Shown here piece after piece: positions 25,133 through 64,000 of a stretch of DNA of 64,000 nt. The notes under the pieces were generated by a model. The model ran no database searches and was not told the DNA's origin. It saw nothing but the letters and a program-made list of their open reading frames with translations. Made by a program: the position numbers and the translations under genes. The stretch lies in the NCBI RefSeq assembly GCF_054482525.1, contig NZ_CM137006.1; one strand, written 5' to 3'. Every line of letters starts with the position of its first letter. The stretch's first letter is position 1.

Positions 25133-25912
25133 CTACGGCACGTTAAACAACGTATATGTATTATTTAGCAACGCTTGCGCAATCTCATCCGCTGGTTCCG
25201 GACGCAACTCGCAAAGCACGTCAAACACCCGCGCGGCCTGTTCCGGGCGGTTAGGCTGCCCCTGAAAACCGTTGAGCGGCATATCCGGCGCGTCGGTTTC
25301 CAGCAACAACGATGCCAGCGGTAATTTTGCGATGACATCGCGGGTTTTACTGGCGCGTGGATAGGTGATAGTACCGCCTACGCCGATTTTGTAGCCCAGC
25401 TGTACAAACCGTTCGGCCTGTTGCAGGCTGCCGGAAAAACCATGAACCACGCCAGAGCGCGGCAAATCGTGGAGTTTAAGATGCATCGCGAGTTTGTCGT
25501 GCGTGCGTCGTGAATGCAGGATCACCGGCAGATCGTAGCGTTTCGCCAGTTTCAGTTGTTCGTCGAGTAACCACTGCTGCCTCTCAAATTGCGGATCGTC
25601 GCCGAAGAGATCCAGACCGATCTCCCCCACCGCCACCACCTTCGCCGGACGCCTTTCCAGCGCCTGCTGTAGCTGATCAAGAGACACATCGCTATGTTTT
25701 TCCAACATACCAGGATGCAAGCCCAATGCGGCATACAGCGGTTGATATTTTTCCGCTAACGCCTGCACGCGGGCAAAATTTTCCGCCTCGGTTGCCGGAA
25801 CAATGATCTTGCCTACGCCCGCTTGTGCCGCGCGTTGCAGGCTGGCCTCTTCATCGCCACTAAACGGCGGGAAATCAAAATGGCAGTGGGTGTCGATAAA
25901 ACAGCAAATCAA
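25133..25912 (-). CDS. yjjV: TatD-family metal-dependent hydrolase/DNase YjjV
   Basis: 259 aa ORF MICCFIDTHCHFDFPPF...; TatD HxH motif. Confidence 0.88.
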   Translation of the reverse strand: MICCFIDTHCHFDFPPFSGDEEASLQRAAQAGVGKIIVPATEAENFARVQALAEKYQPLYAALGLHPGMLEKHSDVSLDQLQQALERRPAKVVAVGEIGLDLFGDDPQFERQQWLLDEQLKLAKRYDLPVILHSRRTHDKLAMHLKLHDLPRSGVVHGFSGSLQQAERFVQLGYKIGVGGTITYPRASKTRDVIAKLPLASLLLETDAPDMPLNGFQGQPNRPEQAARVFDVLCELRPEPADEIAQALLNNTYTLFNVP

Positions 25913-32923: not shown

Positions 32924-33010
32924 GCGAAGGTGGCGGAATTGGTAGACGCGCTAGCTTCAGGTGTTAGTGTCCTTACGGACGTGGGGGTTCAAGTCCCCCC
33001 CCTCGCACCA
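32924..33010 (+). tRNA. leuQ: tRNA-Leu (anticodon CAG), 87 nt incl. CCA
   Basis: gcgaaggtggcggaattggtagacgcgctagcttcaggtgttagtgtccttacggacgtgggggttcaagtcccccccctcgcacca; D-arm, CAG anticodon loop (cttCAGgt), long variable arm, T-arm GGTTCAAGTCC. Confidence 0.93.
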
Positions 33011-33038
33011 AAAACCACGTTGATATTGCTCGCACTGG

Positions 33039-33125
33039 GCGAAGGTGGCGGAATTGGTAGACGCGCTAGCTTCAGGTGTTAGTGTTCTTACGGACGTGGG
33101 GGTTCAAGTCCCCCCCCTCGCACCA
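33039..33125 (+). tRNA. leuP: tRNA-Leu (CAG), 87 nt; differs from flanking copies by one base in the variable arm (gtgtTctt vs gtgtCctt)
   Basis: second tandem copy after a 28-nt spacer. Confidence 0.93.
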
Positions 33126-33159
33126 AACGAGGCGATATCAAAAAAAGTAAGATGACTGT

Positions 33160-33246
33160 GCGAAGGTGGCGGAATTGGTAGACGCGCTAGCTTCAGGTGT
33201 TAGTGTCCTTACGGACGTGGGGGTTCAAGTCCCCCCCCTCGCACCA
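33160..33246 (+). tRNA. leuV: tRNA-Leu (CAG), 87 nt
   Basis: third tandem copy after a 34-nt spacer; identical to first copy. Confidence 0.93.
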
Positions 33247-46012: not shown

Positions 46013-47668
46013 TTAAAACGTTTCCCAGTTCTCCTCGCTATCTGCCATGGCCATTTTACGCGGCGTAGCTGGCGTCACGGTTTTTACCACAGCCGATGTT
46101 TCACGCTGCTGTTGCTGAATCCGGAACACTGCCACAGCTTCGGTCAGGCGACTGGCCTGCTCTTCCAGCGCGGCGGCGGCAGCGGCAGATTCTTCCACCA
46201 GCGCAGCGTTCTGTTGAGTTACCCGGTCCATCTCAGCGACCGCTAAGCCAACCTGATCGATACCACGGCTCTGCTCATCAGAAGCAGAAGCTATTTCGCC
46301 CATAATGTCCGTCACGCGGGTCACAGCACTGACAATCTCCGCCATTGTTTCCCCGGCGCTTTCGACCAGCGTAGAGCCAACATCCACTTTCCCCACCGAG
46401 TCTTCAATCAGGCTTTTAATTTCACGAGCCGCCTGGGCGCTACGCTGGGCCAGATTACGCACTTCTCCCGCAACCACCGCAAAACCGCGCCCTTGCTCAC
46501 CCGCACGCGCAGCCTCAACCGCGGCGTTCAAAGCCAGAATATTGGTCTGGAAGGCAATGCCGTCAATTACGCTGATAATATCGGCGATTTTCTGCGAACT
46601 GGTGGAGATATCGCGCATGGTCTGCACCACGTTATCCACCACTTTGCCGCCGCGTTGCGCCGTTTCAGAAGCACTTAATGCCAGATGGCTGGCCTGGCGC
46701 GCATTCTCGGCGTTCTGTTTCACCGTTGCGGTCAGTTGCTCCATGCTGGCTGCCGTCTCTTCCAGCGAAGCGGCCTGTTGCTCGGTGCGCGAAGAGAGAT
46801 CGTTATTACCGGTGGCGATTTCGCTGGCACCGCTATAGATGGCATTGGCCCCGTTGCGCACATCACCGACGGTACGCATCAGCTCTCCCTGCATATGGCG
46901 CAAACTCTCTGCCAGTTGCCCCATCTCATTAGAGCCATCCACCTCAATCGGTTTCACCAGATCGCCGCCTGCAATATGACGAATGCTGTCAATCAGGCGA
47001 TTCATTGGCGCTACCAACGAGGCTTTAATACCGAACCAGACGGCGAAGATGACCGCCAGTACGACGATCATCACGCCCACCAGAATCCACATCGCCTGGC
47101 TGTAGGAGGCATTGTTATCGCTGACGGCGATATCATAGAGCCGATCGTTTTGCTCCATGTAAGCCACATACTGCTTCTCGAAAGCGTCCTGATATCCCTG
47201 GGTCGGCTGATCAAAGAACTCGTTGATTTTGCCTGCACCTAACAGTTGGATCAGCTCCGCCAGCGCATTGTGATAAATATCGTAATTACGTTTGATCTCT
47301 GACGCTGCGGCGGTGCTCTGACGCGGGTCACGCGGCAACGCTTCGTAATCCGCCCAGTTTTTTTCCGCCTGTTTCAGCGAAATACTGGCACTCTGCATCA
47401 GCTCAGCAACGGTTGAACCGCTACCAATATTATTCTGATCCATCATGTAGCGGATACCCGCGCGGTTGAGGGTGTTACGCGTCTGCAACAACGCAACCCA
47501 GCTGCCATTCAGCGTGGATTGCTGCTGGCGAATGGTTTGTAAAACAGTGAAATTTTCTTTGTCATTCTTTAAGGCATTAAAGAACAGACCGCCTGAAGTC
47601 AGTTGTAAAAGGCCAAAAACGGCCAAAACCAGCAGTAAGCTGGTCACAATTTTGATACGTTTTAACAT
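46013..47668 (-). CDS. tsr: methyl-accepting chemotaxis protein I (serine chemoreceptor)
   Basis: 551 aa [43 protein letters not shown]...; HAMP and MCP signalling domain; C-terminal NWETF. Confidence 0.93.
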
Positions 47669-47786
47669 GGTTTCTCTTTCCTGTGGACCGATGCAAGATT
47701 TTCGGCCTGGAAAGCAAAAACTTTATGAAAAGGTGTAACCCGCCATCCATGGAAAAACCAGGCGCTGGTTATCAGATATTAAAAAG

Positions 47787-48233
47787 TTATTCATTATCGC
47801 CCGGGATGTCTTCTTGTCGGGAATTACCCAGAGCAATAAATTCCTCTAACAGATGGGTTAACTGTTGCATTTTCTCGGCAGTAAACTGAGCTTCAATCTG
47901 CCGATAGGCTTCTTCAATCTGTGTCTGAGCGCGGTTATACAGGGCCTGCCCCTCTTTGGTCAGCGAGATATAGAGCTTCCGCTGATCATTGATCGGCTTT
48001 AATCGCAACACTAAACCGTCGCGTTCCATCCGCGTGAGGATCCCGGTCAGGCTTGGGCGCAAAATGCAGGCGCGATACGCCAGATCGTGAAAATCCATTG
48101 ATGGGCTTTCCGCCAGAATACGCACGATGCGCCACTGTTGCTCTGTCAAATTATGCCGTTTAACGATTGGGCGAAAATAACTCATCGCCGCTTCTCGCGC
48201 CTGGAGCAACGCAATGGTTAGTGAGTCGTGCAT
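47787..48233 (-). CDS. hpaR: MarR-family repressor of the hpa meta-cleavage operon
   Basis: ORF 47787..48314; MHDSLTIALLQAREAAMSYFRPIVKRHNLTEQQWRIVRILAESPSMDFHDLAYRACI from codon 28. Confidence 0.85.
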   Translation of the reverse strand: MHDSLTIALLQAREAAMSYFRPIVKRHNLTEQQWRIVRILAESPSMDFHDLAYRACILRPSLTGILTRMERDGLVLRLKPINDQRKLYISLTKEGQALYNRAQTQIEEAYRQIEAQFTAEKMQQLTHLLEEFIALGNSRQEDIPGDNE

Positions 48234-48455
48234 TATCTTTCCCCTGAAAAATTCAAAATCATTAATATAGAAACAGTTAATCATCACGTTACCGGGACTG
48301 CGCTGCCCCTGCAATTCTTCATTTTATCAAAATTGAGCATGTTTTGTTAACTTACTGATATTTAATATTTTATTATCTTTAAATGTAAATAGTTTGTTAA
48401 TTAGATCACATTTACATCACTTACTTTTGCCAAACTACGCAATCGGGAATAAAAG

Positions 48456-48479
48456 TAATCATTAACATATTAATGATTA
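48456..48479. promoter_or_regulatory. candidate HpaR operator: near-perfect palindrome TAATCATTAACATATTAATGATTA overlapping the hpaG promoter; approximate
   Basis: 24-bp palindrome ~25 bp upstream of hpaG start in the hpaR/hpaG divergent region. Confidence 0.55.
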
Positions 48480-48504
48480 AGATGATCGAATCCGAGGAGT
48501 GGTA

Positions 48505-49794
48505 ATGAAAGGCACTATCTTCGCCGTAGCGTTGAACCATCGCAGCCAACTTGATGCATGGCAGGAAGCGTTCCAGCAATCCCCCTACAAAGCCCCGCCT
48601 AAAACTGCGGTCTGGTTTATTAAACCGCGCAATACGGTGATTGGTTGCGGTGAACCGATTCCCTTTCCACAGGGTGAAAAGGTACTGAGCGGTGCGACTG
48701 TTGCGCTGATTGTGGGAAAAACGGCGACGAAAGTACGTGAAGAAGATGCAGCAGAGTACATCGCCGGATATGCGCTGGCTAACGACGTCAGCCTGCCGGA
48801 AGAGAGCTTTTACCGCCCGGCAATCAAAGCAAAATGTCGTGATGGATTCTGCCCCATTGGCGAAACCGTGGCTCTCAGCAATGTCGATAATCTGACCATC
48901 TATACCGAGATCAACGGGCGTCCTGCCGATCACTGGAACACCGCCGATTTACAACGTAATGCCGCGCAGTTGCTGAGCGCTCTGAGCGAATTTGCCACGC
49001 TGAATCCAGGCGATGCCATTCTGCTCGGCACGCCACAGGCGCGCGTGGAAATACAGCCAGGCGATCGCGTTCGTGTTCTCGCTGAAGGTTTCCCGCCACT
49101 GGAAAATCCGGTAATGGACGAACGTGAAGTGACCACGCGCAAGAGCTTCCCAACGCAGCCACACCCGCACGGCACGCTGTTTGCCCTCGGCCTGAACTAC
49201 GCCGACCACGCCAGCGAACTGGAATTTAAGCCACCGGAAGAACCGCTGGTGTTCCTGAAAGCGCCGAATACCCTCACTGGCGATAACCAGACCTCCGTGC
49301 GCCCGAACAATATTGAATATATGCACTACGAAGCGGAGCTGGTGGTGGTGATTGGCAAGCAGGCGCGTAACGTCAGCGAAGCCGATGCTATGGATTATGT
49401 CGCGGGCTACACCGTGTGTAACGACTACGCCATTCGCGACTATCTGGAAAACTACTACCGCCCTAACCTGCGGGTAAAAAGCCGCGACGGACTGACGCCG
49501 ATGCTTTCAACCATCGTGCCGAAAGAGGCGATCCCGGACCCGCATAATCTGACCCTTCGCACCTTCGTCAACGGCGAGTTACGCCAGAAAGGCACCACCG
49601 CCGATCTGATCTTCAGCGTGCCCTTCCTGATCGCCTACTTAAGCGAATTTATGACCCTGAATCCGGGCGACATGATCGCCACCGGCACACCAAAAGGCTT
49701 ATCTGACGTGGTGCCTGGCGATGAAGTAGTAGTGGAAGTAGAAGGCGTGGGCCGCCTGGTGAACCGAATTGTGAGTGAGGAAACAGCGAAATGA
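48505..49794 (+). CDS. hpaG: bifunctional 5-carboxymethyl-2-oxo-hex-3-ene-1,7-dioate decarboxylase / isomerase (two FAH-like domains)
   Basis: ORF 48499..49794; MKGTIFAVALNHRSQLDAWQEAF...; GAGGAG RBS. Confidence 0.9.
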   Translation: MKGTIFAVALNHRSQLDAWQEAFQQSPYKAPPKTAVWFIKPRNTVIGCGEPIPFPQGEKVLSGATVALIVGKTATKVREEDAAEYIAGYALANDVSLPEESFYRPAIKAKCRDGFCPIGETVALSNVDNLTIYTEINGRPADHWNTADLQRNAAQLLSALSEFATLNPGDAILLGTPQARVEIQPGDRVRVLAEGFPPLENPVMDEREVTTRKSFPTQPHPHGTLFALGLNYADHASELEFKPPEEPLVFLKAPNTLTGDNQTSVRPNNIEYMHYEAELVVVIGKQARNVSEADAMDYVAGYTVCNDYAIRDYLENYYRPNLRVKSRDGLTPMLSTIVPKEAIPDPHNLTLRTFVNGELRQKGTTADLIFSVPFLIAYLSEFMTLNPGDMIATGTPKGLSDVVPGDEVVVEVEGVGRLVNRIVSEETAK

Positions 49795-51257
49795 AAAAAG
49801 TAAATCATTGGATCAACGGCAAAAATGTTGCAGGTAACGACTACTTCCAGACCACCAATCCGGCAACGGGTGAAGTGCTGGCGGATGTGGCCTCTGGCGG
49901 TGAAGCGGAGATCAATCAGGCGGTAGCGGCAGCGAAAGAGGCGTTCCCGAAATGGGCCAATCTGCCGATGAAAGAGCGTGCGCGCCTGATGCGCCGTCTG
50001 GGCGATCTGATCGACCAGAACGTGCCTGAGATCGCCGCGATGGAAACCGCGGACACGGGCCTGCCAATCCATCAGACCAAAAATGTGTTGATCCCACGCG
50101 CTTCTCACAACTTTGAATTTTTCGCGGAAGTCTGCCAGCAGATGAACGGCAAGACCTATCCGGTTGACGACAAGATGCTCAACTACACGCTGGTGCAACC
50201 GGTAGGCGTTTGTGCGCTGGTATCGCCGTGGAACGTGCCGTTTATGACCGCCACATGGAAGGTCGCGCCGTGTCTGGCGCTGGGCAATACCGCGGTGTTG
50301 AAAATGTCGGAACTCTCCCCGCTGACCGCTGACCGCCTGGGTGAGCTGGCGCTGGAAGCCGGTATTCCGGCGGGCGTGCTGAACGTGGTACAGGGCTACG
50401 GCGCAACCGCAGGCGATGCGCTGGTTCGTCATCATGACGTACGTGCCGTGTCGTTCACCGGCGGTACGGCCACCGGGCGCAACATCATGAAAAACGCCGG
50501 GCTGAAAAAATACTCCATGGAACTGGGCGGTAAATCGCCGGTGCTGATTTTTGAAGATGCCGATATTGAACGCGCGCTGGACGCTGCCCTGTTCACCATC
50601 TTCTCGATCAACGGCGAGCGCTGCACCGCCGGTTCGCGCATCTTTATTCAGCAAAGCATCTACCCGGAATTCGTTAAACGCTTTGCCGAACGCGCCAACC
50701 GTCTGCGCGTGGGCGATCCGAACGATCCGAATACCCAGGTTGGGGCGCTTATCAGCCAGCAACACTGGGAAAAAGTCTCCGGCTATATTCGTCTCGGCAT
50801 TGAAGAAGGCGCAACCCTGCTGGCGGGCGGTCCGGATAAACCGTCCGACCTGCCTGCGCACCTGAAAGGCGGCAACTTCCTGCGCCCAACGGTGCTGGCT
50901 GACGTTGATAACCGTATGCGCGTCGCCCAGGAAGAGATTTTCGGGCCGGTCGCCTGTCTGCTGCCGTTTAAAGACGAAGCCGAAGGCTTACGTCTGGCAA
51001 ACGACGTGGAGTACGGCCTCGCGTCGTACATCTGGACACAGGATGTCAGCAAAGTGTTACGCCTGGCGCGTGGCATTGAAGCAGGCATGGTGTTCGTCAA
51101 CACCCAGAACGTGCGTGACCTGCGCCAGCCATTTGGCGGCGTAAAAGCCTCCGGCACCGGGCGTGAAGGCGGTGAGTACAGCTTCGAAGTGTTCGCGGAA
51201 ATGAAGAACGTCTGCATTTCCATGGGCGACCATCCAATTCCGAAATGGGGAGTCTGA
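49791..51257 (+). CDS. hpaE: 5-carboxymethyl-2-hydroxymuconate semialdehyde dehydrogenase
   Basis: 488 aa aldehyde dehydrogenase; ATGA start/stop overlap with hpaG. Confidence 0.9.
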   Translation: MKKVNHWINGKNVAGNDYFQTTNPATGEVLADVASGGEAEINQAVAAAKEAFPKWANLPMKERARLMRRLGDLIDQNVPEIAAMETADTGLPIHQTKNVLIPRASHNFEFFAEVCQQMNGKTYPVDDKMLNYTLVQPVGVCALVSPWNVPFMTATWKVAPCLALGNTAVLKMSELSPLTADRLGELALEAGIPAGVLNVVQGYGATAGDALVRHHDVRAVSFTGGTATGRNIMKNAGLKKYSMELGGKSPVLIFEDADIERALDAALFTIFSINGERCTAGSRIFIQQSIYPEFVKRFAERANRLRVGDPNDPNTQVGALISQQHWEKVSGYIRLGIEEGATLLAGGPDKPSDLPAHLKGGNFLRPTVLADVDNRMRVAQEEIFGPVACLLPFKDEAEGLRLANDVEYGLASYIWTQDVSKVLRLARGIEAGMVFVNTQNVRDLRQPFGGVKASGTGREGGEYSFEVFAEMKNVCISMGDHPIPKWGV

Positions 51258-51258
51258 T

Positions 51259-52110
51259 ATGGGTAAGTTAGCGTTAGCCGCCAAGATCACGCACGTACCG
51301 TCGATGTATCTCTCTGAACTGCCAGGGAAAAACCACGGTTGCCGCCAGGGTGCGATTGACGGGCATAAAGAGATCAGCAAGCGTTGCCGGGAAATGGGCG
51401 TCGATACCATTATCGTTTTCGATACCCACTGGCTGGTCAACAGTGCTTATCACATCAACTGTGCAGACCATTTTGAAGGCGTCTACACCAGCAACGAGCT
51501 GCCGCATTTTATCCGCGATATGACCTACAACTACGAGGGCAACCCGGAGTTGGGGCAGCTTATTGCCGATGAAGCCTTAAAACTCGGCGTGCGGGCAAAA
51601 GCGCACAATATTCCCAGCCTGAAACTGGAATACGGCACGCTGGTGCCAATGCGCTACATGAATGAAGACAAGCACTTCAAAGTGGTCTCCATTTCGGCTT
51701 TCTGCACGGTTCACGATTTTGCCGACAGCCGCAAGCTTGGCGAAGCGATTGTGAAAGCGATCGAACAGTACGACGGCACCGTGGCGGTCCTTGCCAGCGG
51801 TTCGTTATCGCACCGCTTTATTGACGATCAGCGTGCGGAAGAAGGGATGAACAGCTACACCCGCGAGTTCGACCGCCAGATGGACGAGCGCGTGGTGAAG
51901 CTGTGGCGCGAAGGCCAGTTCAAAGAGTTCTGCAATATGCTGCCGGAGTACGCCGACTACTGCTACGGCGAAGGCAATATGCACGACACGGTGATGCTGC
52001 TGGGGATGCTCGGCTGGGATAAATACGACGGCAAGGTGGAGTTTATTACCGAGCTGTTCCCAAGCTCTGGCACTGGTCAGGTTAACGCTGTTTTCCCGCT
52101 TCCCGCGTAA
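51259..52110 (+). CDS. hpaD: 3,4-dihydroxyphenylacetate (homoprotocatechuate) 2,3-dioxygenase
   Basis: 283 aa ORF MGKLALAAKITHVPSMYLSELPGKNHGCRQGAIDGHKE... Confidence 0.9.
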   Translation: MGKLALAAKITHVPSMYLSELPGKNHGCRQGAIDGHKEISKRCREMGVDTIIVFDTHWLVNSAYHINCADHFEGVYTSNELPHFIRDMTYNYEGNPELGQLIADEALKLGVRAKAHNIPSLKLEYGTLVPMRYMNEDKHFKVVSISAFCTVHDFADSRKLGEAIVKAIEQYDGTVAVLASGSLSHRFIDDQRAEEGMNSYTREFDRQMDERVVKLWREGQFKEFCNMLPEYADYCYGEGNMHDTVMLLGMLGWDKYDGKVEFITELFPSSGTGQVNAVFPLPA

Positions 52111-52119
52111 GGAACCACC

Positions 52120-52500
52120 ATGCCGCACTTTATCGTGGAATGTACTGAAAATATTCGTCAAGAAGCCCGCTTACCTGAGCTGTTTGCCAGTGTTAACACC
52201 GCACTGGCGGCGACGGGGATTTTTCCGCTTGGGGGAATACGTAGCCGGGCGCACTGGATCGATACCTGGCAAATGGCCGATGGCAAGCACGATTACGCCT
52301 TTGTGCATATGACGCTAAAAATCGGCAGCGGGCGCAGTCTGGAAAGCCGTCAGGAAGTAGGTGAAATGCTGTTTGATCTGATTAAAACGCACTTCGCCTC
52401 ACTGATGGAGAGCCGTTACCTGGCGCTTTCATTTGAGATTGCAGAGCTGCACCCGACGTTGAATTTCAAACAGAACAACGTACACGCGTTGTTTAAATAA
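52120..52500 (+). CDS. hpaF: 5-carboxymethyl-2-hydroxymuconate delta-isomerase
   Basis: 126 aa [36 protein letters not shown]... Confidence 0.9.
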
Positions 52501-52567
52501 ATTTGCACCAGCTTCCAGGCCGGATGATAAGGCGCAGCCGCATCCGGCAATGCCACAGGATATCGCC

Positions 52568-53371
52568 ATGTTCGATAAACACACCCACACCCTGATCGCC
52601 CAGCGTCTGGATCAGGCAGAAAAACAGCGCGAACAGATCCGCGCGATCTCGCTGGATTACCCGGAGATCACCATCGAAGACGCTTACGCGGTGCAGCGTG
52701 AATGGGTTCGACTGAAAATCGCCGAAGGTCGCACGCTGAAAGGCCACAAAATCGGCCTGACCTCGAAAGCGATGCAGGCCAGCTCACAAATCAGCGAGCC
52801 GGATTACGGTGCCCTGCTGGATGACATGTTCTTCCACGATGGCAGCGATATCCCGACCGATCGCTTTATCGTGCCGCGCATTGAAGTGGAGCTGGCTTTC
52901 GTGCTGGCAAAACCGCTGCGTGGGCCAAACTGCACGCTGTTCGACGTTTACAACGCCACGGACTATGTGATCCCGGCGCTGGAGCTGATCGACGCTCGCT
53001 GCCACAACATCGATCCGGAAACCCAGCGCCCGCGTAAAGTGTTCGACACCATTTCTGATAACGCCGCCAATGCCGGGGTGATCCTCGGTGGTCGTCCGAT
53101 CAAACCTGACGAGCTGGATCTGCGTTGGATCTCCGCCCTCATGTATCGCAATGGCGTGATTGAAGAAACCGGCGTCGCCGCTGGTGTGCTGAATCATCCG
53201 GCAAACGGCGTGGCCTGGCTGGCGAACAAACTCGCACCGTATGACGTACAACTGGAAGCCGGGCAAATCATTCTCGGCGGTTCGTTCACCCGCCCGGTTC
53301 CGGCGCGTAAGGGCGACACCTTCCACGTCGATTACGGCAACATGGGTTCCATTAGCTGCCGCTTTGTTTAA
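52568..53371 (+). CDS. hpaH: 2-oxo-hept-4-ene-1,7-dioate hydratase
   Basis: ORF 52550..53371; [28 protein letters not shown]... from codon 7. Confidence 0.88.
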
Positions 53372-53381
53372 GGAGAGAACG

Positions 53382-54170
53382 ATGGAAAACAGTTTTAAAG
53401 CGGCGCTGAAAGCAGGCCGCCCGCAGATCGGATTATGGCTGGGGCTAAGTAGCAGCTACAGCGCAGAGTTACTGGCCGGAGCAGGATTCGACTGGTTATT
53501 GATCGACGGTGAGCACGCGCCGAATAACGTGCAAACCGTGCTCACCCAACTACAGGCGATTGCGCCCTATCCCAGCCAGCCGGTAGTACGTCCGTCGTGG
53601 AACGATCCGGTGCAAATCAAACAACTGCTGGACGTCGGCACACAAACCTTACTGGTGCCGATGGTACAAAACGCCGACGAAGCCCGTGAAGCGGTACGCG
53701 CCACCCGTTATCCCCCCGCCGGTATTCGTGGTGTGGGCAGTGCGCTGGCCCGCGCCTCGCGCTGGAATCGTATTCCTGATTACCTGCAAAAAGCCAACGA
53801 TCAAATGTGCGTGCTGGTGCAGATCGAAACGCGTGAGGCAATGAAGAACCTACCGCAGATTCTGGACGTGGAAGGGGTAGACGGCGTGTTTATCGGCCCG
53901 GCGGATCTGAGCGCCGATATGGGTTATGCCGGTAATCCGCAGCACCCGGAAGTGCAGGCCGCCATTGAACAGGCGATCGTGCAAATCCGTGAAGCGGGCA
54001 AAGCGCCGGGGATCCTGATCGCCAATGAGCAACTGGCAAAACGCTACCTGGAACTGGGCGCGCTATTTGTCGCCGTCGGCGTTGACACCACCCTGCTCGC
54101 CCGCGCCGCCGAAGCGCTGGCAGCACGGTTTGGCGCGCAGGCTACAGCGATTAAGCCCGGCGTGTATTAA
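53382..54170 (+). CDS. hpaI: 4-hydroxy-2-oxo-heptane-1,7-dioate aldolase (HpcH/HpaI family)
   Basis: in-frame part of ORF 53241..54170; [48 protein letters not shown]; GGAGAG RBS. Confidence 0.88.
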
Positions 54171-54250
54171 TGCCGGATGCGCTGCGCTTATCCGGCCTAC
54201 ACTCGCACCAAACCGTAGGCCGGATAAGGCGTTTACGCCGCATCCGCCAT
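54171..54250. repeat. REP/BIME palindromic repeats after hpaI; approximate
   Basis: tgccggatgcgctgcgcttatccggcctac...gtaggccggataaggcgtttacgccgcatccg. Confidence 0.8.
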
Positions 54251-54293
54251 AAACCTTGTCGTACCCTACAAAAATCCCATTAGAGGAAGAAAA

Positions 54294-55670
54294 ATGAGCG
54301 ACACCTCACCTGCCATACCGGAAAGTATCGATCCGGCAAATCAGCATAAAACGCTGACTGCCGGACAACAGGCGGTTATTAAGAAGCTGTTTCGCCGCCT
54401 GATCGTCTTTCTGTTCGTGCTGTTTATCTTCTCGTTCCTTGATCGCATCAACATCGGCTTTGCCGGGCTCACGATGGGACGCGACCTCGGTCTGAGCGCC
54501 ACCATGTTTGGCCTCGCCACCACCCTGTTCTACGCCGCTTATGTCATCTTCGGCATTCCCAGCAACATTATGCTGAGTATTGTCGGTGCGCGGCGCTGGA
54601 TCGCCACCATCATGGTGCTTTGGGGCATCGCCTCTACGGTCACCATGTTTGCCACTGGCCCCACCAGCTTGTACGTACTGCGCATACTGGTTGGCATTAC
54701 CGAAGCCGGCTTTCTGCCTGGCATTCTGCTGTATTTAACCTTCTGGTTTCCGGCCTATTTCCGCGCCCGTGCCAACGCCTTGTTTATGGTAGCAATGCCG
54801 GTAACGACAGCGTTGGGATCGATCGTTTCCGGCTACATTTTGTCGCTGGATGGCGTAATGGCATTAAAAGGCTGGCAGTGGCTGTTTTTGCTGGAAGGCT
54901 TCCCGTCGGTATTACTCGGCGTCATGGTGTGGTTCTGGCTTGATGACTCACCGGACAAAGCTAAGTGGCTGACGAAAGAAGACAAAAAATGCCTGCAAGA
55001 GATGATGGATAACGATCGTCTGACGCTGGTTCAGCCAGAGGGAGCCATCAGCCACCACGCCATGCAACAACGCAGCATGTGGCGGGAGATCTTCACTCCG
55101 GTGGTGATGATGTATACCCTGGCGTATTTCTGCCTGACCAACACACTTAGTGCAATCAGCATCTGGACACCGCAGATCCTACAAAGCTTTAATCAGGGTA
55201 GCAGTAATATCACCATCGGCCTGCTGGCCGCCGTACCGCAGATTTGTACCATTCTCGGGATGATCTACTGGAGCCGTCACTCAGATCGCCGCCAGGAACG
55301 AAGGCATCACACCGCCCTTCCTTATTTGTTCGCTGCCGCTGGTTGGTTACTGGCTTCGGCAACTGATCACAACATGATCCAGATGCTGGGGATCATTATG
55401 GCTTCGACCGGATCATTCAGCGCAATGGCGATTTTCTGGACAACACCGGATCAGTCCATCAGCCTGCGGGCACGAGCGATCGGTATTGCGGTGATCAACG
55501 CCACTGGCAACATTGGTTCAGCATTAAGTCCGTTTATGATCGGCTGGTTGAAAGATCTGACCGGCAGCTTTAACAGTGGATTGTGGTTTGTTGCCGCGCT
55601 GCTGGTGATTGGTGCGGGGATTATCTGGGCGATTCCAATGCAGTCCTCCCGTCCGCGAGCGACCCCGTAA
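54294..55670 (+). CDS. hpaX: MFS 4-hydroxyphenylacetate permease
   Basis: 458 aa 12-TM MFS ORF. Confidence 0.88.
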   Translation: MSDTSPAIPESIDPANQHKTLTAGQQAVIKKLFRRLIVFLFVLFIFSFLDRINIGFAGLTMGRDLGLSATMFGLATTLFYAAYVIFGIPSNIMLSIVGARRWIATIMVLWGIASTVTMFATGPTSLYVLRILVGITEAGFLPGILLYLTFWFPAYFRARANALFMVAMPVTTALGSIVSGYILSLDGVMALKGWQWLFLLEGFPSVLLGVMVWFWLDDSPDKAKWLTKEDKKCLQEMMDNDRLTLVQPEGAISHHAMQQRSMWREIFTPVVMMYTLAYFCLTNTLSAISIWTPQILQSFNQGSSNITIGLLAAVPQICTILGMIYWSRHSDRRQERRHHTALPYLFAAAGWLLASATDHNMIQMLGIIMASTGSFSAMAIFWTTPDQSISLRARAIGIAVINATGNIGSALSPFMIGWLKDLTGSFNSGLWFVAALLVIGAGIIWAIPMQSSRPRATP

Positions 55671-55679
55671 GGAACGACG

Positions 55680-56570
55680 ATGTGTGACCGTCAGATTGCC
55701 AATATTGATATCAGCAAAGAGTACGATGAAAGCCTGGGTACTGACGATGTGCATTATCAGTCGTTCGCCCGCATGGCGGCATTTTTTGGCCGCCATATGC
55801 TGCCACATCGCCACGAACAGTACTTTCAGATGCATTTCCTCAATAGCGGACAGATTGAGCTACAGCTTGACGATCATCGCTACTCGGTGGAAGCGCCCCT
55901 GTTTGTCCTGACGCCACCGTCAGTACCTCATGCGTTTATTACGGAGTCTGACGCCGACGGTCATGTGTTGACGGTACGGGAAGATCTGATCTGGCCCCTG
56001 CTGGAAGTTCTTTATCCGGGCACTCGGGAAACCTTCGGCCTGCCGGGGATTTGCCTGTCACTGGCAGATAAACCCGACGAACTGGCGGCGCTGGAACACT
56101 ATTGGCAACTGATAGAGCGGGAATCGGTAGAACAACTGCCTGGACGGGAACACACCCTGACGCTACTGGCACAGGCAGTGTTCACCCTACTGCTGCGTAA
56201 CGCAAAACTCGACGACCATGCCGCCAGCGGGATGCGCGGAGAATTAAAACTGTTCCAACGTTTTCATATGCTGATTGAAAGCCATTTTCACCAGCACTGG
56301 ACAGTACCGGATTACGCTAACGAACTGCATATCACCGAATCACGACTCACGGACATCTGCCGTCGCTTTGCCAACCGTCCGCCAAAACGGTTGATTTTCG
56401 ACAGGCAGCTGCGAGAAGCCAAACGGCTGCTGCTGTTTTCTGATAACGCCGTGAACAATATTGCCTGGCAACTCGGTTTTAAGGATCCGGCTTATTTTGC
56501 CCGCTTTTTTAATCGCTTAGTCGGTTGCTCGCCCAGTGCTTATCGTGCCAAAAAAGTACCTGTGACGTGA
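55680..56570 (+). CDS. hpaA: AraC/XylS-family activator of hpaBC
   Basis: 296 aa ORF; cupin-like N-terminal domain and C-terminal AraC HTH (...AYFARFFNRLVGCSPSAYR). Confidence 0.88.
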   Translation: MCDRQIANIDISKEYDESLGTDDVHYQSFARMAAFFGRHMLPHRHEQYFQMHFLNSGQIELQLDDHRYSVEAPLFVLTPPSVPHAFITESDADGHVLTVREDLIWPLLEVLYPGTRETFGLPGICLSLADKPDELAALEHYWQLIERESVEQLPGREHTLTLLAQAVFTLLLRNAKLDDHAASGMRGELKLFQRFHMLIESHFHQHWTVPDYANELHITESRLTDICRRFANRPPKRLIFDRQLREAKRLLLFSDNAVNNIAWQLGFKDPAYFARFFNRLVGCSPSAYRAKKVPVT

Positions 56571-56820
56571 AAATCCCTTAGCCTTAACGGGAAACCAGGC
56601 ACCACCTGCTATTCCCCTTTCTCCGCCTGGAGCAAGGGGATTTAGTAACGTTAAAAATCGTTAAAAGCGACCTCGATCACAAAACCGTACCCGACATGAA
56701 AAGTACCAGCCATTGTCCCAAAAGTGTCTTCCCGTAATCGCCCCTGCAAGCTTCAATTGAATAACAAAAACAACACACAAAATTAACAATCGTATTCCGA
56801 TTAATACTGTAGAGGTCGAC

Positions 56821-58383
56821 ATGAAACCAGAAGATTTCCGCGCCAGTACCCAACGTCCGTTCACCGGGGAAGAGTATCTGAAAAGCCTGCAGGATGGTCG
56901 AGAGATCTATATCTATGGCGAGCGAGTGAAAGACGTCACCACTCATCCGGCATTTCGTAATGCGGCAGCGTCTGTTGCCCAACTGTACGACGCGCTACAC
57001 AAACCGGAGATGCAGGACTCTCTGTGTTGGAACACCGACACCGGCAGCGGCGGCTATACCCATAAATTCTTCCGCGTGGCGAAAAGTGCCGACGACCTGC
57101 GCCAGCAACGCGACGCCATCGCTGAGTGGTCACGCCTGAGCTATGGCTGGATGGGCCGTACCCCAGACTACAAAGCTGCTTTCGGTTGCGCACTGGGCGC
57201 GAATCCGGGCTTTTACGGTCAGTTCGAGCAGAACGCCCGTAACTGGTACACCCGTATTCAGGAAACTGGCCTCTACTTTAACCACGCGATTGTTAACCCA
57301 CCGATCGATCGTCATTTGCCGACCGATAAAGTAAAAGACGTTTACATCAAGCTGGAAAAAGAGACTGACGCCGGGATTATCGTCAGCGGTGCGAAAGTGG
57401 TTGCCACCAACTCGGCGCTGACTCACTACAACATGATTGGCTTCGGCTCGGCACAAGTGATGGGCGAAAACCCGGACTTCGCACTGATGTTCGTTGCGCC
57501 AATGGATGCCGATGGCGTGAAATTAATCTCCCGCGCCTCTTATGAGATGGTCGCGGGTGCTACCGGCTCGCCGTACGACTACCCGCTCTCCAGCCGCTTC
57601 GATGAGAACGATGCGATTCTGGTGATGGATAACGTGCTGATCCCATGGGAAAACGTGCTGATCTACCGCGATTTTGATCGCTGCCGTCGCTGGACGATGG
57701 AAGGCGGTTTCGCCCGTATGTATCCGCTGCAAGCCTGTGTGCGCCTGGCAGTGAAATTAGACTTCATTACGGCACTGCTGAAAAAATCACTCGAATGTAC
57801 CGGCACCCTGGAGTTCCGTGGCGTGCAGGCCGATCTCGGTGAAGTGGTGGCGTGGCGCAACACCTTCTGGGCATTGAGTGACTCGATGTGTTCAGAAGCA
57901 ACGCCGTGGGTCAACGGGGCTTATTTACCGGATCATGCCGCACTGCAAACCTATCGCGTACTGGCACCAATGGCCTACGCGAAGATCAAAAACATTATCG
58001 AACGCAACGTTACCAGTGGCCTGATCTATCTCCCTTCCAGTGCCCGTGACCTGAACAATCCGCAGATCGACCAGTATCTGGCGAAGTATGTGCGCGGTTC
58101 GAATGGTATGGATCACGTCCAGCGCATCAAGATCCTCAAACTGATGTGGGATGCCATTGGCAGCGAATTTGGTGGTCGTCACGAACTGTATGAAATCAAC
58201 TACTCCGGTAGCCAGGATGAGATTCGCCTGCAGTGTCTGCGCCAGGCACAAAGCTCCGGCAATATGGACAAGATGATGGCGATGGTTGATCGCTGCCTGT
58301 CGGAATACGACCAGAACGGCTGGACTGTGCCGCACCTGCACAACAACGACGATATCAACATGCTGGATAAGCTGCTGAAATAA
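56821..58383 (+). CDS. hpaB: 4-hydroxyphenylacetate 3-monooxygenase, oxygenase component
   Basis: 520 aa ORF MKPEDFRASTQRPFTGEEYLKSLQDGREIYIYGERVKDVTTHPAFRNAA... Confidence 0.92.
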   Translation: MKPEDFRASTQRPFTGEEYLKSLQDGREIYIYGERVKDVTTHPAFRNAAASVAQLYDALHKPEMQDSLCWNTDTGSGGYTHKFFRVAKSADDLRQQRDAIAEWSRLSYGWMGRTPDYKAAFGCALGANPGFYGQFEQNARNWYTRIQETGLYFNHAIVNPPIDRHLPTDKVKDVYIKLEKETDAGIIVSGAKVVATNSALTHYNMIGFGSAQVMGENPDFALMFVAPMDADGVKLISRASYEMVAGATGSPYDYPLSSRFDENDAILVMDNVLIPWENVLIYRDFDRCRRWTMEGGFARMYPLQACVRLAVKLDFITALLKKSLECTGTLEFRGVQADLGEVVAWRNTFWALSDSMCSEATPWVNGAYLPDHAALQTYRVLAPMAYAKIKNIIERNVTSGLIYLPSSARDLNNPQIDQYLAKYVRGSNGMDHVQRIKILKLMWDAIGSEFGGRHELYEINYSGSQDEIRLQCLRQAQSSGNMDKMMAMVDRCLSEYDQNGWTVPHLHNNDDINMLDKLLK

Positions 58384-58400
58384 CGCAGCAGGAGGTTAAG

Positions 58401-58913
58401 ATGCAATTAGATGAACAACGCCTGCGCTTTCGTGACGCAATGGCCAGCCTGTCGGCAGCGGTAAATATTATCACCACCGAGGGCAACGCCGGGCAATGCG
58501 GGATTACGGCAACGGCTGTCTGCTCGGTCACGGATACACCACCGTCGCTGATGGTGTGCATTAACGCCAACAGTGCGATGAACCCGGTTTTTCAGGGCAA
58601 CGGTAAGTTGTGCGTCAACGTCCTCAACCATGAGCAGGAACTGATGGCACGCCACTTCGCGGGCATGACAGGCATGGCGATGGAAGAGCGTTTTAGCCTC
58701 TCATGCTGGCAAAAAGGTCCGCTGGCGCAGCCGGTGCTAAAAGGTTCGCTGGCCAGTCTTGAAGGTGAGATCCGCGATGTGCAGGCAATTGGCACACATC
58801 TGGTGTATCTGGTGGAGATTAAAAACATCATCCTCAGTGCAGAAGGTCACGGACTTATCTACTTTAAACGCCGTTTCCATCCGGTGATGCTGGAAATGGA
58901 AGCTGCGATTTAA
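58401..58913 (+). CDS. hpaC: 4-hydroxyphenylacetate 3-monooxygenase, flavin reductase component
   Basis: 170 aa ORF MQLDEQRLRFRDAMASLSAAVNIITTEGNAGQCGITATAVCSVTDTPPSLMVCIN...; GGAGG RBS. Confidence 0.9.
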   Translation: MQLDEQRLRFRDAMASLSAAVNIITTEGNAGQCGITATAVCSVTDTPPSLMVCINANSAMNPVFQGNGKLCVNVLNHEQELMARHFAGMTGMAMEERFSLSCWQKGPLAQPVLKGSLASLEGEIRDVQAIGTHLVYLVEIKNIILSAEGHGLIYFKRRFHPVMLEMEAAI

Positions 58914-58920
58914 GCTCCAG

Positions 58921-58952
58921 CCCCTTCACGTATTCGTCGAAGGGGCATTTTT
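58921..58952 (+). terminator. rho-independent terminator of hpaBC (CCCCTTC-loop-GAAGGGG then T-tract); approximate
   Basis: ccccttcacgtattcgtcgaaggggcattttta directly after hpaC stop. Confidence 0.75.
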
Positions 58953-58954
58953 AT

Positions 58955-58970
58955 TGTGATCTCAATCACA
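58955..58970. promoter_or_regulatory. CRP (cAMP receptor protein) consensus site TGTGA-N6-TCACA upstream of btsT; approximate
   Basis: tgtgatctcaatcaca, perfect match to both CRP half-sites. Confidence 0.7.
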
Positions 58971-58998
58971 TATCCACCCGATGAATAATTCTTGCCCA

Positions 58999-59026
58999 AC
59001 CGCTCACCGCCATTCCTGACCGCTTA
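58999..59026. promoter_or_regulatory. direct repeat ACCGCTCA-N12-ACCGCTTA, candidate LytTR response-regulator (BtsR/YehT) binding site in the btsT promoter; approximate
   Basis: two 8-bp direct repeats at the spacing expected for LytTR regulators. Confidence 0.6.
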
Positions 59027-59183
59027 CATCCCTAAAATAACCACTCAGTTATTTACCTTACTTTATGCGCGCGTAACTCTGGCAACATCACTGCAGGATA
59101 GCGGTCAATTTACCTCCTCAAACGCAACGCAAACCTAGAACGGCTTCGGCCTATGATTAACAAATTACTCTATGGATTTTGGT

Positions 59184-59288
59184 TTGCAGGAAGGCAGCAA
59201 GTGAGTGAATCCCCGGGAGCTTACAACAGTAAGTGACAGGGGTGAACGAACGCAGCTGCCGCACCTGTAAGCCAAAAGACGACGAGTA
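59184..59288 (+). repeat. copy B of the ~100-nt structured repeat, immediately upstream of btsT start codon
   Basis: ttgcaggaaggcagcaagtgagtgaatccccgggagcttacaacagtaagtgacaggggtgaacgaacg...gacgagta; same orientation and ~85% identity to copy A (4496..4600). Confidence 0.6.
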
Positions 59289-59305
59289 AAATGCCAGGTT
59301 TTACT

Positions 59306-61456
59306 ATGGATACGAAAAAACTATTCAAGCACATACCCTGGGTGATTCTCGGAATCATCGGTGCATTCTGCCTCGCGGTAGTTGCATTACGTCGGGGGGA
59401 GCACGTCAGCGCCCTGTGGATCGTGGTCGCCTCTGTGTCGGTGTATCTGGTGGCTTATCGCTACTACAGTCTGTACATCGCCCAGAAGGTGATGAAACTC
59501 GACCCCACGCGCGCGACGCCTGCGGTTATTAACAACGACGGTCTGAACTACGTTCCGACCAACCGTTACGTGTTGTTTGGTCACCACTTCGCCGCTATCG
59601 CCGGTGCTGGTCCGCTGGTTGGACCGGTTCTCGCCGCGCAGATGGGCTACCTGCCTGGCACGCTGTGGCTGCTGGCGGGGGTCGTGCTGGCCGGTGCGGT
59701 TCAGGACTTTATGGTGCTGTTTATCTCCTCTCGCCGTAACGGCGCATCTCTCGGTGAGATGATCAAAGAAGAGATGGGACCAGTACCGGGGACTATCGCG
59801 CTGTTTGGCTGTTTCTTAATCATGATCATCATCCTCGCCGTCCTGGCGCTGATTGTGGTTAAAGCCCTGGCCGAAAGTCCGTGGGGTGTCTTCACCGTTT
59901 GCTCAACCGTACCGATTGCGCTGTTTATGGGTATCTACATGCGCTTTATCCGTCCGGGGCGTGTGGGTGAAGTCTCTGTCATTGGTATCGTGCTGCTGGT
60001 TGCCTCTATCTACTTCGGTGGCGTGATTGCTCACGATCCGTACTGGGGTCCGGCACTGACCTTTAAAGACACCACCATTACCTTCGCGCTGATTGGCTAT
60101 GCGTTTGTTTCCGCACTGCTGCCGGTGTGGCTGATCCTCGCACCGCGCGACTATCTGGCAACCTTCCTGAAAATCGGTGTTATCGTCGGCCTGGCGCTGG
60201 GTATCGTGGTGCTGAACCCGGAACTGAAAATGCCTGCGATGACCCAGTACATTGACGGTACTGGCCCGCTGTGGAAAGGCGCTCTGTTCCCGTTCCTGTT
60301 CATCACCATCGCCTGTGGTGCGGTATCTGGCTTCCACGCACTGATCTCTTCCGGTACGACACCGAAACTGCTGGCTAATGAAACCGACGCGCGTTTCATT
60401 GGCTACGGCGCAATGCTGATGGAGTCCTTCGTGGCGATTATGGCGCTGGTTGCTGCGTCCATCATCGAACCGGGTCTTTACTTCGCGATGAACACCCCGC
60501 CTGCTGGCCTCGGCATCACCATGCCTAACCTGCATGAAATGGGTGGCGAGAACGCGCCGATCATCATGGCGCAGCTGAAAGACGTTACCGCACACGCGGC
60601 AGCGACCGTCAGCTCCTGGGGCTTCGTGATTTCGCCAGAGCAGATCCTGCAAACCGCGAAAGACATTGGTGAGCCTTCTGTCCTGAACCGTGCAGGTGGT
60701 GCGCCGACGCTGGCGGTAGGTATCGCTCACGTGTTCCACAAAGTGCTGCCGATGGCTGACATGGGCTTCTGGTATCACTTCGGTATTCTGTTCGAAGCCC
60801 TGTTCATCCTGACCGCGCTGGATGCGGGTACCCGTTCTGGCCGCTTTATGCTGCAAGACCTGCTGGGTAACTTTATCCCGTTCCTGAAAAAAACCGACTC
60901 TCTGGTTGCTGGTATCATCGGTACTGCGGGCTGTGTGGGTCTGTGGGGCTACCTGCTGTATCAGGGCGTGGTCGATCCGCTGGGCGGCGTTAAGAGCCTG
61001 TGGCCGCTGTTCGGTATCTCCAACCAGATGCTGGCAGCCGTGGCGCTGGTACTGGGTACCGTTGTGCTGATTAAGATGAAGCGCACCCAATACATCTGGG
61101 TAACTGTTGTTCCGGCTGTATGGCTGCTTATCTGCACCACCTGGGCGCTGGGCCTGAAACTGTTCAGCACCAACCCGCAGATGGAAGGCTTCTTCTACAT
61201 GGCAAGCCAGTACAAAGAGAAGATTGCTAACGGTACTGACCTGACGGCGCAGCAGATTGCCAACATGAACCACATCGTTGTGAACAACTACACCAACGCA
61301 GGCCTGAGTATTCTGTTCCTGATTGTGGTGTACAGCATCATCTTCTACGGTTTCAAAACCTGGCTTGCGGTGCGTAACAGCGACAAACGTACTGACAAAG
61401 AAACACCGTACGTTCCAATCCCGGAAGGCGGCGTGAAGATCTCTTCGCACCACTAA
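59306..61456 (+). CDS. btsT: CstA-family pyruvate/H+ symporter BtsT (YjiY)
   Basis: ORF 59291..61456; MDTKKLFKHIPWVILGIIGAFCLAVVALRRGEHVSALWIVVASVSVYLVAYRYYS... from codon 6; polytopic membrane protein. Confidence 0.9.
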   Translation: MDTKKLFKHIPWVILGIIGAFCLAVVALRRGEHVSALWIVVASVSVYLVAYRYYSLYIAQKVMKLDPTRATPAVINNDGLNYVPTNRYVLFGHHFAAIAGAGPLVGPVLAAQMGYLPGTLWLLAGVVLAGAVQDFMVLFISSRRNGASLGEMIKEEMGPVPGTIALFGCFLIMIIILAVLALIVVKALAESPWGVFTVCSTVPIALFMGIYMRFIRPGRVGEVSVIGIVLLVASIYFGGVIAHDPYWGPALTFKDTTITFALIGYAFVSALLPVWLILAPRDYLATFLKIGVIVGLALGIVVLNPELKMPAMTQYIDGTGPLWKGALFPFLFITIACGAVSGFHALISSGTTPKLLANETDARFIGYGAMLMESFVAIMALVAASIIEPGLYFAMNTPPAGLGITMPNLHEMGGENAPIIMAQLKDVTAHAAATVSSWGFVISPEQILQTAKDIGEPSVLNRAGGAPTLAVGIAHVFHKVLPMADMGFWYHFGILFEALFILTALDAGTRSGRFMLQDLLGNFIPFLKKTDSLVAGIIGTAGCVGLWGYLLYQGVVDPLGGVKSLWPLFGISNQMLAAVALVLGTVVLIKMKRTQYIWVTVVPAVWLLICTTWALGLKLFSTNPQMEGFFYMASQYKEKIANGTDLTAQQIANMNHIVVNNYTNAGLSILFLIVVYSIIFYGFKTWLAVRNSDKRTDKETPYVPIPEGGVKISSHH

Positions 61457-62753: not shown

Positions 62754-64000
62754 TTATCTCTGAACGTGCAACACTTCCTGCGACTCCTTATGCGCCTCCA
62801 CATCCTGCTTCGTTAACCAGAGCGACTTACGACCAAAATTTTCGTACATTTTCAGCTGATCTTCATAGTGCTTATCAACTGTTCCATCGGGAGCAATAAA
62901 TCCACTCTGACCGGGTGCGACCACATCCCAGGCAAGCACCGGGCGATCGCTCGTCATTGGTGAGAAGACAATCATATCGTTTTCTGTTCCACGGTTTTGA
63001 TACTCCGCCTGATGACGCGCTTCTTCCGCTGCGGCCTGCGGTACGCCAAAGAAATTATTTGCCCGGAACGTTAAGGCCATTGCAGGTGTTTTCCAGTTAC
63101 TCACATTATTGCCATAGCGTTTGGAAAGAGTCTCCCAGGTATCTTCCAGCGCAGCCAACACAACCTCCTGCTGTGATTTCCCGGCAAACAGATCAACCGC
63201 CTGTGGGATTGGTGATTTGTCTCCCTGCACCGCCTCATACAAAATTTTTGCTCCAACACTTATATTCAGCGAACCAGTTGGACCGTCCTGGGTTGTTTCG
63301 TAGCCACTGGCGCTGTACCACTTATCAAATGGCATAGGTACAACAGCCACTACGGTACGCTTCAACATACTGGTCAGCCAAACGTTTAGGATGGCAGAGC
63401 CTGGCTGTTGCCAGGTTTTACCATCATCATTGAGCAGATTGATGCCATCCCAACGTGTTAATGTTTCTACCAACTGACGACGCGGATCGCTCTGTGTCAA
63501 ACCAGATGTCGCTGCTTGCAGAGTAGGTAAAAAAAGCCTCAGGTTAAGATCCTGACGACTGGTTTGGCGAATAACATCCCATGCCTGATCAGCAGTTAAG
63601 CGTGGCTTTTGCTCAAGCAGTCGGTCGATCTCCGTAACGCGATCTGCACCACCCCACAAAAAGGCAAACAGATCCGAAGCGGGATAATCTTTTTGGGGGG
63701 AATTGTTCCAGTTAGCAATATATCCCGACTGGGGGTTATACACCTTAGGGTTCATTTCAAAAGGCAATAGCCCTTTCCAGTCCCATTTTCCCGTACCAGG
63801 AACGGGTAATCGCGGATCATGGCCTGATTGACGATCTGGATAAGCACCAGTATGAACATAACCAATATTGCCGTTTACATCAGCATAGTACCAGTTGATG
63901 GTCAGTGCTTGTTTCGCTGCCTGCTGTGTCCACTCCTGCCAATTTTTGGCCTTCATCTGATGAGTCCAGGCCAGCAAAGACGCCACCTCTTTACCATCCC
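62754..64000 (-). CDS. pac: penicillin G acylase (Ntn-hydrolase), 3' portion; gene continues beyond window end
   Basis: ORF 62754..63986 with no start in window; C-terminus ...[30 protein letters not shown] and internal ...[56 protein letters not shown] match E. coli penicillin amidase beta subunit. Confidence 0.85.

Follow-up and report, generated by a model that had tools for sequence, protein, structure and literature searches.

The 58914–59305 interval is very likely the complete cis-regulatory region of btsT (yjiY), a gene controlled by BtsS/BtsR, in its hpa-linked allelic form. By the window we mean the whole 64,000-nucleotide stretch of contig NZ_CM137006.1 (assembly GCF_054482525.1) that was analysed. 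In it, the interval makes up the entire gap between the hpaC stop codon (58911–58913) and the btsT ATG (59306). The initial annotation had read this gap as the btsT control region, and the gene calls on both sides bear the reading out. The features described below lie on the plus strand unless stated otherwise.

Upstream, hpaC (58401–58913) is the final gene of hpaBC and encodes the reductase subunit of 4-hydroxyphenylacetate 3-monooxygenase. Its score against NCBIfam NF012030 is 384.6 bits at a cut-off of 315, and RefSeq calls hpaC at the matching position of PCN033, whose locus is 99.996% identical to the window. Downstream, btsT (59306–61456) encodes a pyruvate/H+ symporter of 716 aa, and RefSeq calls the identical sequence BtsT. 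The product scores 1012.8 bits against the CstA family model; the CstA equivalog cut-off is 1188, and a paralogue is expected to stay below it. The gene order in the PCN033 RefSeq annotation and the window is tsr(-), hpaR(-), hpaGEDFHI-hpaX-hpaA-hpaBC(+), btsT-yjiX-yjiA(+) and penicillin G acylase(-). Two small open reading frames, 58992–59138 on the plus and 59221–59358 on the minus strand, overlie regulatory DNA and the ERIC element and were taken as chance frames.

The control region is that of a known system in a common allele, and its novelty is low. The K-12 model of btsT control by CRP, BtsR and CsrA carries over to the hpa-linked allele, which over a third of E. coli strains possess. 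The main value of this study is careful annotation, and the current understanding is not overturned. The analysis corrects which repeats make up the published BtsR site. Its modest leftovers are a deeply conserved third BtsR box, a polymorphic leader ERIC hairpin and a replacement hotspot whose boundary cuts into the promoter yet spares the CRP site.

The CRP site and the BtsR boxes

The cAMP-CRP site TGTGATCTCAATCACA (58955–58970, no strand assigned) is a perfect palindrome and matches TGTGA-N6-TCACA at 16/16 specified positions. Two perfect sites of this kind are observed in the window versus 0.06 expected. We surveyed the btsT loci of 77 Enterobacterales species, each represented by a single genome, and in 74 of them a CRP site with no more than one mismatch is fixed at 83–86 bp 5′ of BtsR box 3. 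The site is kept also in all three diverged E. coli haplotypes. The perfect CRP site of the initial annotation is thus upheld by the consensus match, the conservation across genera and the SELEX of the K-12 orthologue.

The exact 16-mer of the window recurs in 18 other species and is the commonest form, whether hpaC or tsr lies upstream. At the same position, K-12 has TGTGATATGAATCACA and O157 has TGTGATCATCATCACA. Judged by this comparison, it is K-12 and O157 that deviate, and the window form is the most widely shared across genera. The CRP site is, on its conservation, native and ancient.

The K-12 orthologue of this site was bound in CRP genomic SELEX as TGTGATTCATATCACA, the reverse complement of TGTGATATGAATCACA, in the yjiY<>tsr spacer (PMC3105977, supplementary file 4). 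Deletion of crp abolishes the PbtsT-lux activity in K-12 (PMC7730263), and the cAMP/CRP and Csr control of yjiY has been described (PMC5431176). With both the binding and the crp dependence shown for the K-12 orthologue, cAMP-CRP would likewise bind 58955–58970 of the window allele.

Three BtsR-type boxes follow on one strand within 49 bp. They are box 1 ACCGCTCA (58999–59006), recognized by repeat search and conservation, box 2 ACCGCTTA (59019–59026) and box 3 ACCACTCA (59040–59047). The spacers are 12 bp between boxes 1 and 2 and 13 bp between boxes 2 and 3, making a period of 20–21 bp. In the whole window, 13 copies of the motif are observed versus 5.9 expected. Boxes 2 and 3 differ from each other at exactly the two degenerate positions of ACC[G/A]CT[C/T]A, which we take to be the YehT/BtsR consensus and which fits them both.

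The initial annotation had marked boxes 1 and 2 with their N12 spacer as a direct repeat of the BtsR type. Their positions and their type stand, but the pair is not the published site (12 vs 13 bp) and box 3 had been missed. On the cited 13-bp spacer and the assumed consensus, the published site fits boxes 2 and 3, not boxes 1 and 2, and box 1 falls outside the two-box site. According to PMC4222967, which cites Kraxenberger 2012, the YehT/BtsR site consists of two direct repeats set 13 bp apart. The K-12 oligonucleotide that bound YehT in SPR spans all three boxes (PMC4847170). Comparison with the published site, which had been proposed as a check, finds 59016–59051 identical to the corresponding part of this bound K-12 DNA, and the pair first annotated fails on its 12-bp spacer.

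Box 1 is ACCGCTCA in the window and GCCGCTCA in K-12, where the first base is G, not A. It is conserved as CCGCT(C/T)A across genera and also in three E. coli haplotypes whose surrounding sequence is about 50% diverged. At least three boxes, each with at most one mismatch, are found at the 20–21-bp spacing in 76 of the 77 species, and four boxes in 8. The layout of the CRP site plus three boxes is conserved in about 75/77 Enterobacterales species. The 76 species and the survival of box 1 in the diverged haplotypes together indicate that the phased three-box array is the conserved unit.

We infer from this conservation that BtsR uses box 1. Phosphorylated BtsR, a LytTR-type response regulator, would bind the three phased ACC[G/A]CT[C/T]A boxes at intervals of 20–21 bp, about two helical turns, with boxes 2 and 3 identical to those of K-12 and box 1 presumably joining them.

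The promoter core, the leader and its ERIC element

A consensus scan of 58500–59800 yielded no canonical sigma-70 promoter, and this fits an activator-dependent promoter. The best-conserved blocks 3′ of box 3 are ATTTACC, ACTTTACGCGCG, TCTGGCAnnAT and then CAGCAT. Between box 3 and the ribosome-binding site, conservation among 38 species is highest for TGGCAnnAT followed by CAGCAT. CRP and BtsR together would activate a weak sigma-70 promoter, probably TGGCAACAT (59080–59088), a candidate extended −10 by its conservation, and btsT would start near A59095. Counted from this putative start, the three boxes are centred at about −52, −72 and −92 and the CRP site at about −132, roughly on one helical face. 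A literature search for btsT returned no transcription-start or CsrA-footprint data.

A sigma-54 promoter was also considered, as TGGCA-N7-TGCA at 59080–59095 looks similar to one. It was rejected because other genera do not preserve the GG-to-GC spacing, and also because BtsR is a LytTR regulator and no enhancer-binding protein.

From the same putative start, the btsT leader would be about 211 nt long in the window versus about 88 nt in K-12. CsrA would repress the btsT translation, as the K-12 literature shows. A small leader hairpin, GGC-UUCG-GCC (59142–59151), is conserved in Escherichia, Citrobacter, Klebsiella and Raoultella and absent in more distant genera. It shows compensatory changes, being CAGC-UUCG-GCUG in Salmonella and GCAGC-UACG-GCUGC in UBA5654. 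RNAalifold found no pairs on the leaders of 38 species, and an Rfam search of the region returned no family above threshold. The Shine-Dalgarno-like CCAGG (59294–59298) and the annotated BtsT start codon (59306–59308) together span 59294–59308, and their context CCAGGTTTTACTATGGATAC is nearly invariant among the 38 species.

The leader contains an ERIC/IRU element of 123 bp (copy B, 59166–59288) with the termini TACTC...GAGTA. Its position, 3′ of the BtsR boxes and 5′ of the ATG, means that it must belong to the btsT 5′ leader. Another copy (copy A, 4478–4610) lies between slt and ettA, with EttA confirmed downstream, and 59166–59298 aligns with it at 74% identity over 133 bp (E = 9e-20). The initial annotation had treated copy B as a leader element repeated at 4478–4610; the repeat is confirmed, but it is a generic ERIC transposable repeat and not a btsT-specific motif. 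ERIC is a miniature inverted-repeat element (MITE) of about 127 bp with TA flanks (PMC3184786).

The ERIC-PCR primer sequences identify both copies. Copy B matches ERIC1R at 59205–59226 on the minus strand with 2 mismatches and ERIC2 at 59227–59248 on the plus strand with 3, and copy A matches ERIC2 at 4539–4560 with 0 and ERIC1R at 4517–4538 with 2. The two primers stand back-to-back in both copies in the expected geometry, and no chance matches are expected. The Rfam family V_AS5 of Vibrio matches the ERIC weakly, at 30.7 bits versus the gathering score of 96, and this was read as distant ERIC-like similarity, not membership.

As RNA, copy B folds into one long hairpin with 26-nt arms (−63.6 kcal/mol, z = −8.4). 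The hairpin ends 5 nt 5′ of the Shine-Dalgarno and the element ends 17 nt 5′ of the ATG. The leader would hold it as a self-contained structure. Masking of the ribosome-binding site by ERIC was rejected, as the Shine-Dalgarno and AUG have a predicted probability of being unpaired of 0.42 with ERIC versus 0.37 for K-12 without ERIC.

The element is polymorphic. It is present in the btsT leader of 2062 of the 5426 complete E. coli genomes and absent from that of K-12, O157 and strain R32_14_1F, the empty K-12 site being AATACATGCC. The combination of a K-12-type upstream region with ERIC is found in just 1 genome. Beyond E. coli, the same ERIC occurs with 123/123 identity in E. albertii, whose upstream region is tsr/K-12-like, and in Escherichia sp. 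E1V33. E. albertii is identical to the window at 70/71 positions of the adjoining leader and at about 97.6% of the btsT DNA. Citrobacter portucalensis has an ERIC at the same leader position that is nearer to copy A (85%) than to copy B. Orthology and independent insertion are both compatible with these occurrences.

The ERIC hairpin may be a functional post-transcriptional element that alters btsT mRNA stability or translation through the entry of RNase E or RNase III, extra GGA motifs or ribosome standby, so that the BtsT output differs between 38% of the strains and the rest. This we consider unlikely. The very high stability of the hairpin and the recurrence of an ERIC at this leader position in C. 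portucalensis speak for it, as does the review PMC3184786, which, citing De Gregorio 2005, states that transcribed ERICs can change RNA conformation and create RNase E sites. Three GGA triplets (59174, 59189 and 59216) are added to a leader that otherwise has two, but in the long hairpin they fall within stems or internal loops and not within apical ones. The ERIC plus flanking leader is identical to that of E. albertii at 213/214 positions, versus about 97.6% for the btsT coding DNA, but this substitution deficit is weak, with about 5 expected and 1 observed.

Moreover, the Shine-Dalgarno and AUG are predicted to be essentially as accessible with ERIC as without it, the 250-bp distance would by itself account for how tightly ERIC is linked to hpa, and the same regulation is kept in most species, which are without ERIC. 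The ERIC effect on btsT expression is most likely small or none. Similarly unlikely is the wider reading in which the BtsR operator is a phased three-box array that works with a stereospecifically placed far-upstream CRP site and in which, as a second extension of the K-12 model, the ERIC hairpin measurably alters the CsrA- or RNase-dependent BtsT control. If that were true, the regulation of pyruvate scavenging would differ systematically between the hpa+ and hpa− lineages.

The hpa neighbourhood and the terminator

The hpaC–btsT adjacency is found in 2065 of the 5426 complete E. coli genomes (38%). Also, hpaBC lies directly 5′ of btsT in 13 species of Raoultella, the Klebsiella oxytoca group, Citrobacter, Pseudocitrobacter and Enterobacter, each with its own hairpin before the CRP site. 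One Escherichia lineage has only the hpaC 3′ remnant left. The hpa adjacency appears to be an old and widespread arrangement, not a recent insertion.

The initial annotation had supposed that the hpa island was inserted in this strain, and such a recent event would have left the native btsT promoter directly 3′ of a foreign terminator, perhaps altering the btsT regulation. This is very unlikely. K-12 does lack hpa and has a tsr–btsT gap of only 377 bp, and the near-identity of K-12 and the window restarts only at about 59000–59016. However, the same layout exists in the 2065 E. coli genomes and the 13 species of five other genera, and the window CRP 16-mer is the form most shared across genera with either hpa or tsr upstream. 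The event is replacement rather than insertion, and the CRP site, the three boxes and the promoter core are all retained at the same spacing.

Comparison with K-12, suggested for locating the exact insertion junction, reveals none that is simple. The homology covers 47426–47729 on the tsr side and resumes from 59000 on, and between them 11,270 bp replace 133 bp, with the CRP site on the island side. The replaced 133 bp of K-12 include its own CRP site, whose position is kept in the window. The 58955–59015 stretch aligns with K-12 without gaps at about 50% identity, where only the CRP half-sites and CCGCTCA are conserved, so there is no clean junction. As aligned here, the hpa allele brings its own version of the distal promoter.

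E. coli genomes fill the tsr–btsT gap with at least four alternative cassettes. O157 has there a gene for a 180-aa hypothetical protein, and R32_14_1F has a 6-kb island of RpiR, transporter, RidA, D-aminoacylase and deaminase genes. The gap is a cassette-replacement hotspot with its btsT-side boundary just 5′ of, or within, the promoter.

An intrinsic-terminator-like element (58920–58954) begins 6 nt past the hpaC stop and consists of a hairpin (58920–58946) and a U-tract (58947–58954). The GC-rich stem GCCCCUUCACG / CGU-C-GAAGGGGC has 8+3 bp and a 4-nt loop, includes an 8-bp perfect inverted repeat and is followed by AUUUUUAUU. Its folding energy is −20 kcal/mol (z = −3.8), and 0/200 shuffles are equally stable. 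The consensus promoter and terminator scan of 58500–59800 found nothing here because the stem is bulged, and the terminator was recovered by folding only. The hpaBC transcripts would end at this hairpin and U-tract and btsT would be insulated, while read-through from hpaBC to some extent is possible.

A terminator between hpaC and the btsT promoter, as annotated initially, is thus supported by the predicted fold and the U-tract. That the promoter now sits past a foreign operon terminator holds in part, in that the terminator is present but its region is not uniquely tied to hpa. R32_14_1F, with its different island, has the same hairpin right arm, T-tract and CRP haplotype as the window. In other hpa+ genera, the corresponding place between hpaC and the CRP site is taken by a different GC-rich hairpin.

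It is very unlikely that a leaky hairpin and the conserved hpaC–btsT adjacency amount to functional coupling, in which the 4-hydroxyphenylacetate induction of hpaBC reads into btsT and ties a pyruvate-yielding pathway to a pyruvate transporter. The interrupted U-tract (AUUUUUAUU), the bulged stem, the same-strand position of hpaBC immediately 5′ of btsT in six genera and the pyruvate and succinic semialdehyde that the 4-HPA pathway yields as end products (HpaI aldolase step) count for it, but every hpa+ genus has a GC-rich hairpin and T-run between hpaC and the CRP site with differing sequences, which argues for selected insulation, tsr next to btsT with no hpa between them is no rarer an arrangement (22 species directly adjacent) and BtsR and CRP fully account for the K-12 btsT expression.

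Comparison with known systems

The promoter of the same gene in K-12, yjiY (btsT), has a YehT/BtsR direct repeat reportedly described by Kraxenberger et al. in 2012, J Bacteriol 194:4272. The window has the same boxes 2 and 3 and the same promoter core, with 100% identity over 59016–59051 and 93% over 59000–59160. A perfect CRP palindrome at the same distance and the same Shine-Dalgarno/start context are also shared. The cAMP-CRP and CsrA control in K-12 has been established by Behr et al. 2017 (PMC5431176, PMC5552118).

The two alleles differ in the CRP N6 and in the 44 bp between the CRP site and box 2, which are about 50% diverged, and in box 1, ACCGCTCA in the window and GCCGCTCA in K-12. 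Moreover, the window has the 123-bp ERIC in its leader, and its upstream neighbours are hpaC and the terminator, whereas K-12 has the divergent tsr promoter there.

ERIC/IRU elements were reportedly described by Sharples & Lloyd in 1990, Hulton et al. in 1991 and Wilson & Sharp in 2006. Copy B resembles them in its length of about 125 bp, its imperfect palindrome, its ERIC-PCR primer core and its inverted termini with TA. It shares with them also the intergenic transcribed position and the presence/absence polymorphism between strains. Unlike the elements 3′ of genes that the reviewed effects concern (PMC3184786), it lies in a 5′ leader against the ribosome-binding site.

Other LytTR promoters, such as YpdB–yhjX, AgrA P2/P3 and VirR–pfoA, have direct repeats of 8–13 bp set about 12–13 bp apart 5′ of a weak promoter (PMC4847170, PMC4064291), as does btsT. 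In contrast to their canonical two boxes, btsT has three and occasionally four phased boxes, together with a far-upstream CRP site at fixed phasing. In the paralogue cstA, too, the CRP site lies unusually far upstream, expression requires cAMP-CRP and CsrA represses translation (PMC7730263), but cstA is without BtsR boxes and is additionally repressed by Fis.

Contents of the tsr-btsT gap and the flanks of btsT

In E. coli, the tsr-btsT gap has at least four alternative contents, as seen by comparing window 47730-58999 with the loci of K-12, O157 and strain R32_14_1F. K-12 carries nothing extra, O157 a gene for a 180-aa hypothetical protein, and R32_14_1F a 6-kb island with RpiR, SSS-transporter, RidA, D-aminoacylase and deaminase genes, while the window holds the 11.3-kb hpa cluster. 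The distance from the CRP site (58955-58970 in the window) to the BtsR boxes (starting at 58999) is the same across all four versions.

At the other side, a minus-strand ORF at 62754-64000 runs past the window end and is assigned to penicillin G acylase by the 99.996% collinearity with strain PCN033; its 410-aa fragment has no NCBIfam match at 1e-10. With this ORF being penicillin G acylase, hpa and pac genes therefore flank btsT-yjiX-yjiA in the window.

Small features of the btsT promoter and leader

The sequence TGGCAACATCACTGCA at 59080-59095 looks like a sigma-54 promoter of the −24/−12 type, and its O157 counterpart is TGGCAGCATCATTGCA. From the sequence comparison, this likeness is probably a coincidence that overlaps the likely −10 region, because other genera do not keep the GG-to-GC spacing and BtsR does not belong to the enhancer-binding proteins.

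Further downstream, the leader segment TACCTCCTCAA at 59110-59121 resembles the 3′ end of 16S rRNA, being like the anti-Shine-Dalgarno CCUCC. It is kept in many genera, and no pairing partner or function was found for it. The 8-mer CTATGGAT occurs twice, at the ERIC left end (59170-59177) and spanning the btsT start codon (59304-59311). An upstream ORF of 10 codons begins in the ERIC copy with its ATG at 59172, and no Shine-Dalgarno sequence is visible for it.

Other sites and RNA genes in the window

Only one perfect CRP palindrome other than the btsT site is present in the window, TGTGATCCACGTCACA at 7478-7493, which overlaps a minus-strand ORF (6525-7505) and follows ettA at a distance of about 1.1 kb. 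Rfam places the nucleoid-associated non-coding RNA naRNA4/CssrE on the minus strand at 25055-25133 (75.7 bits against a threshold of 59.5), and three tandem tRNA genes on the plus strand at 32924-33243 with identical scores of 48.5 bits each. The position of the trio suggests a putative leuV-leuP-leuQ cluster.

Possible relatives of the btsT-leader ERIC

At the same btsT-leader position, Citrobacter portucalensis carries a second, more consensus-like ERIC (3860-3983 of its locus, L016), and C. gillenii has an empty site. The shared position could mean that this site is a hotspot for insertion, or else that the polymorphism is an ancient one.

The window ERIC (59168-59286) also matches Rfam RF02818, the Vibrio antisense RNA AS5, at full length but weakly, with 30.7 bits (E = 1.3e-4), below the family's gathering score of 96. 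This alignment suggests that the RF02818 family may be ERIC-related.
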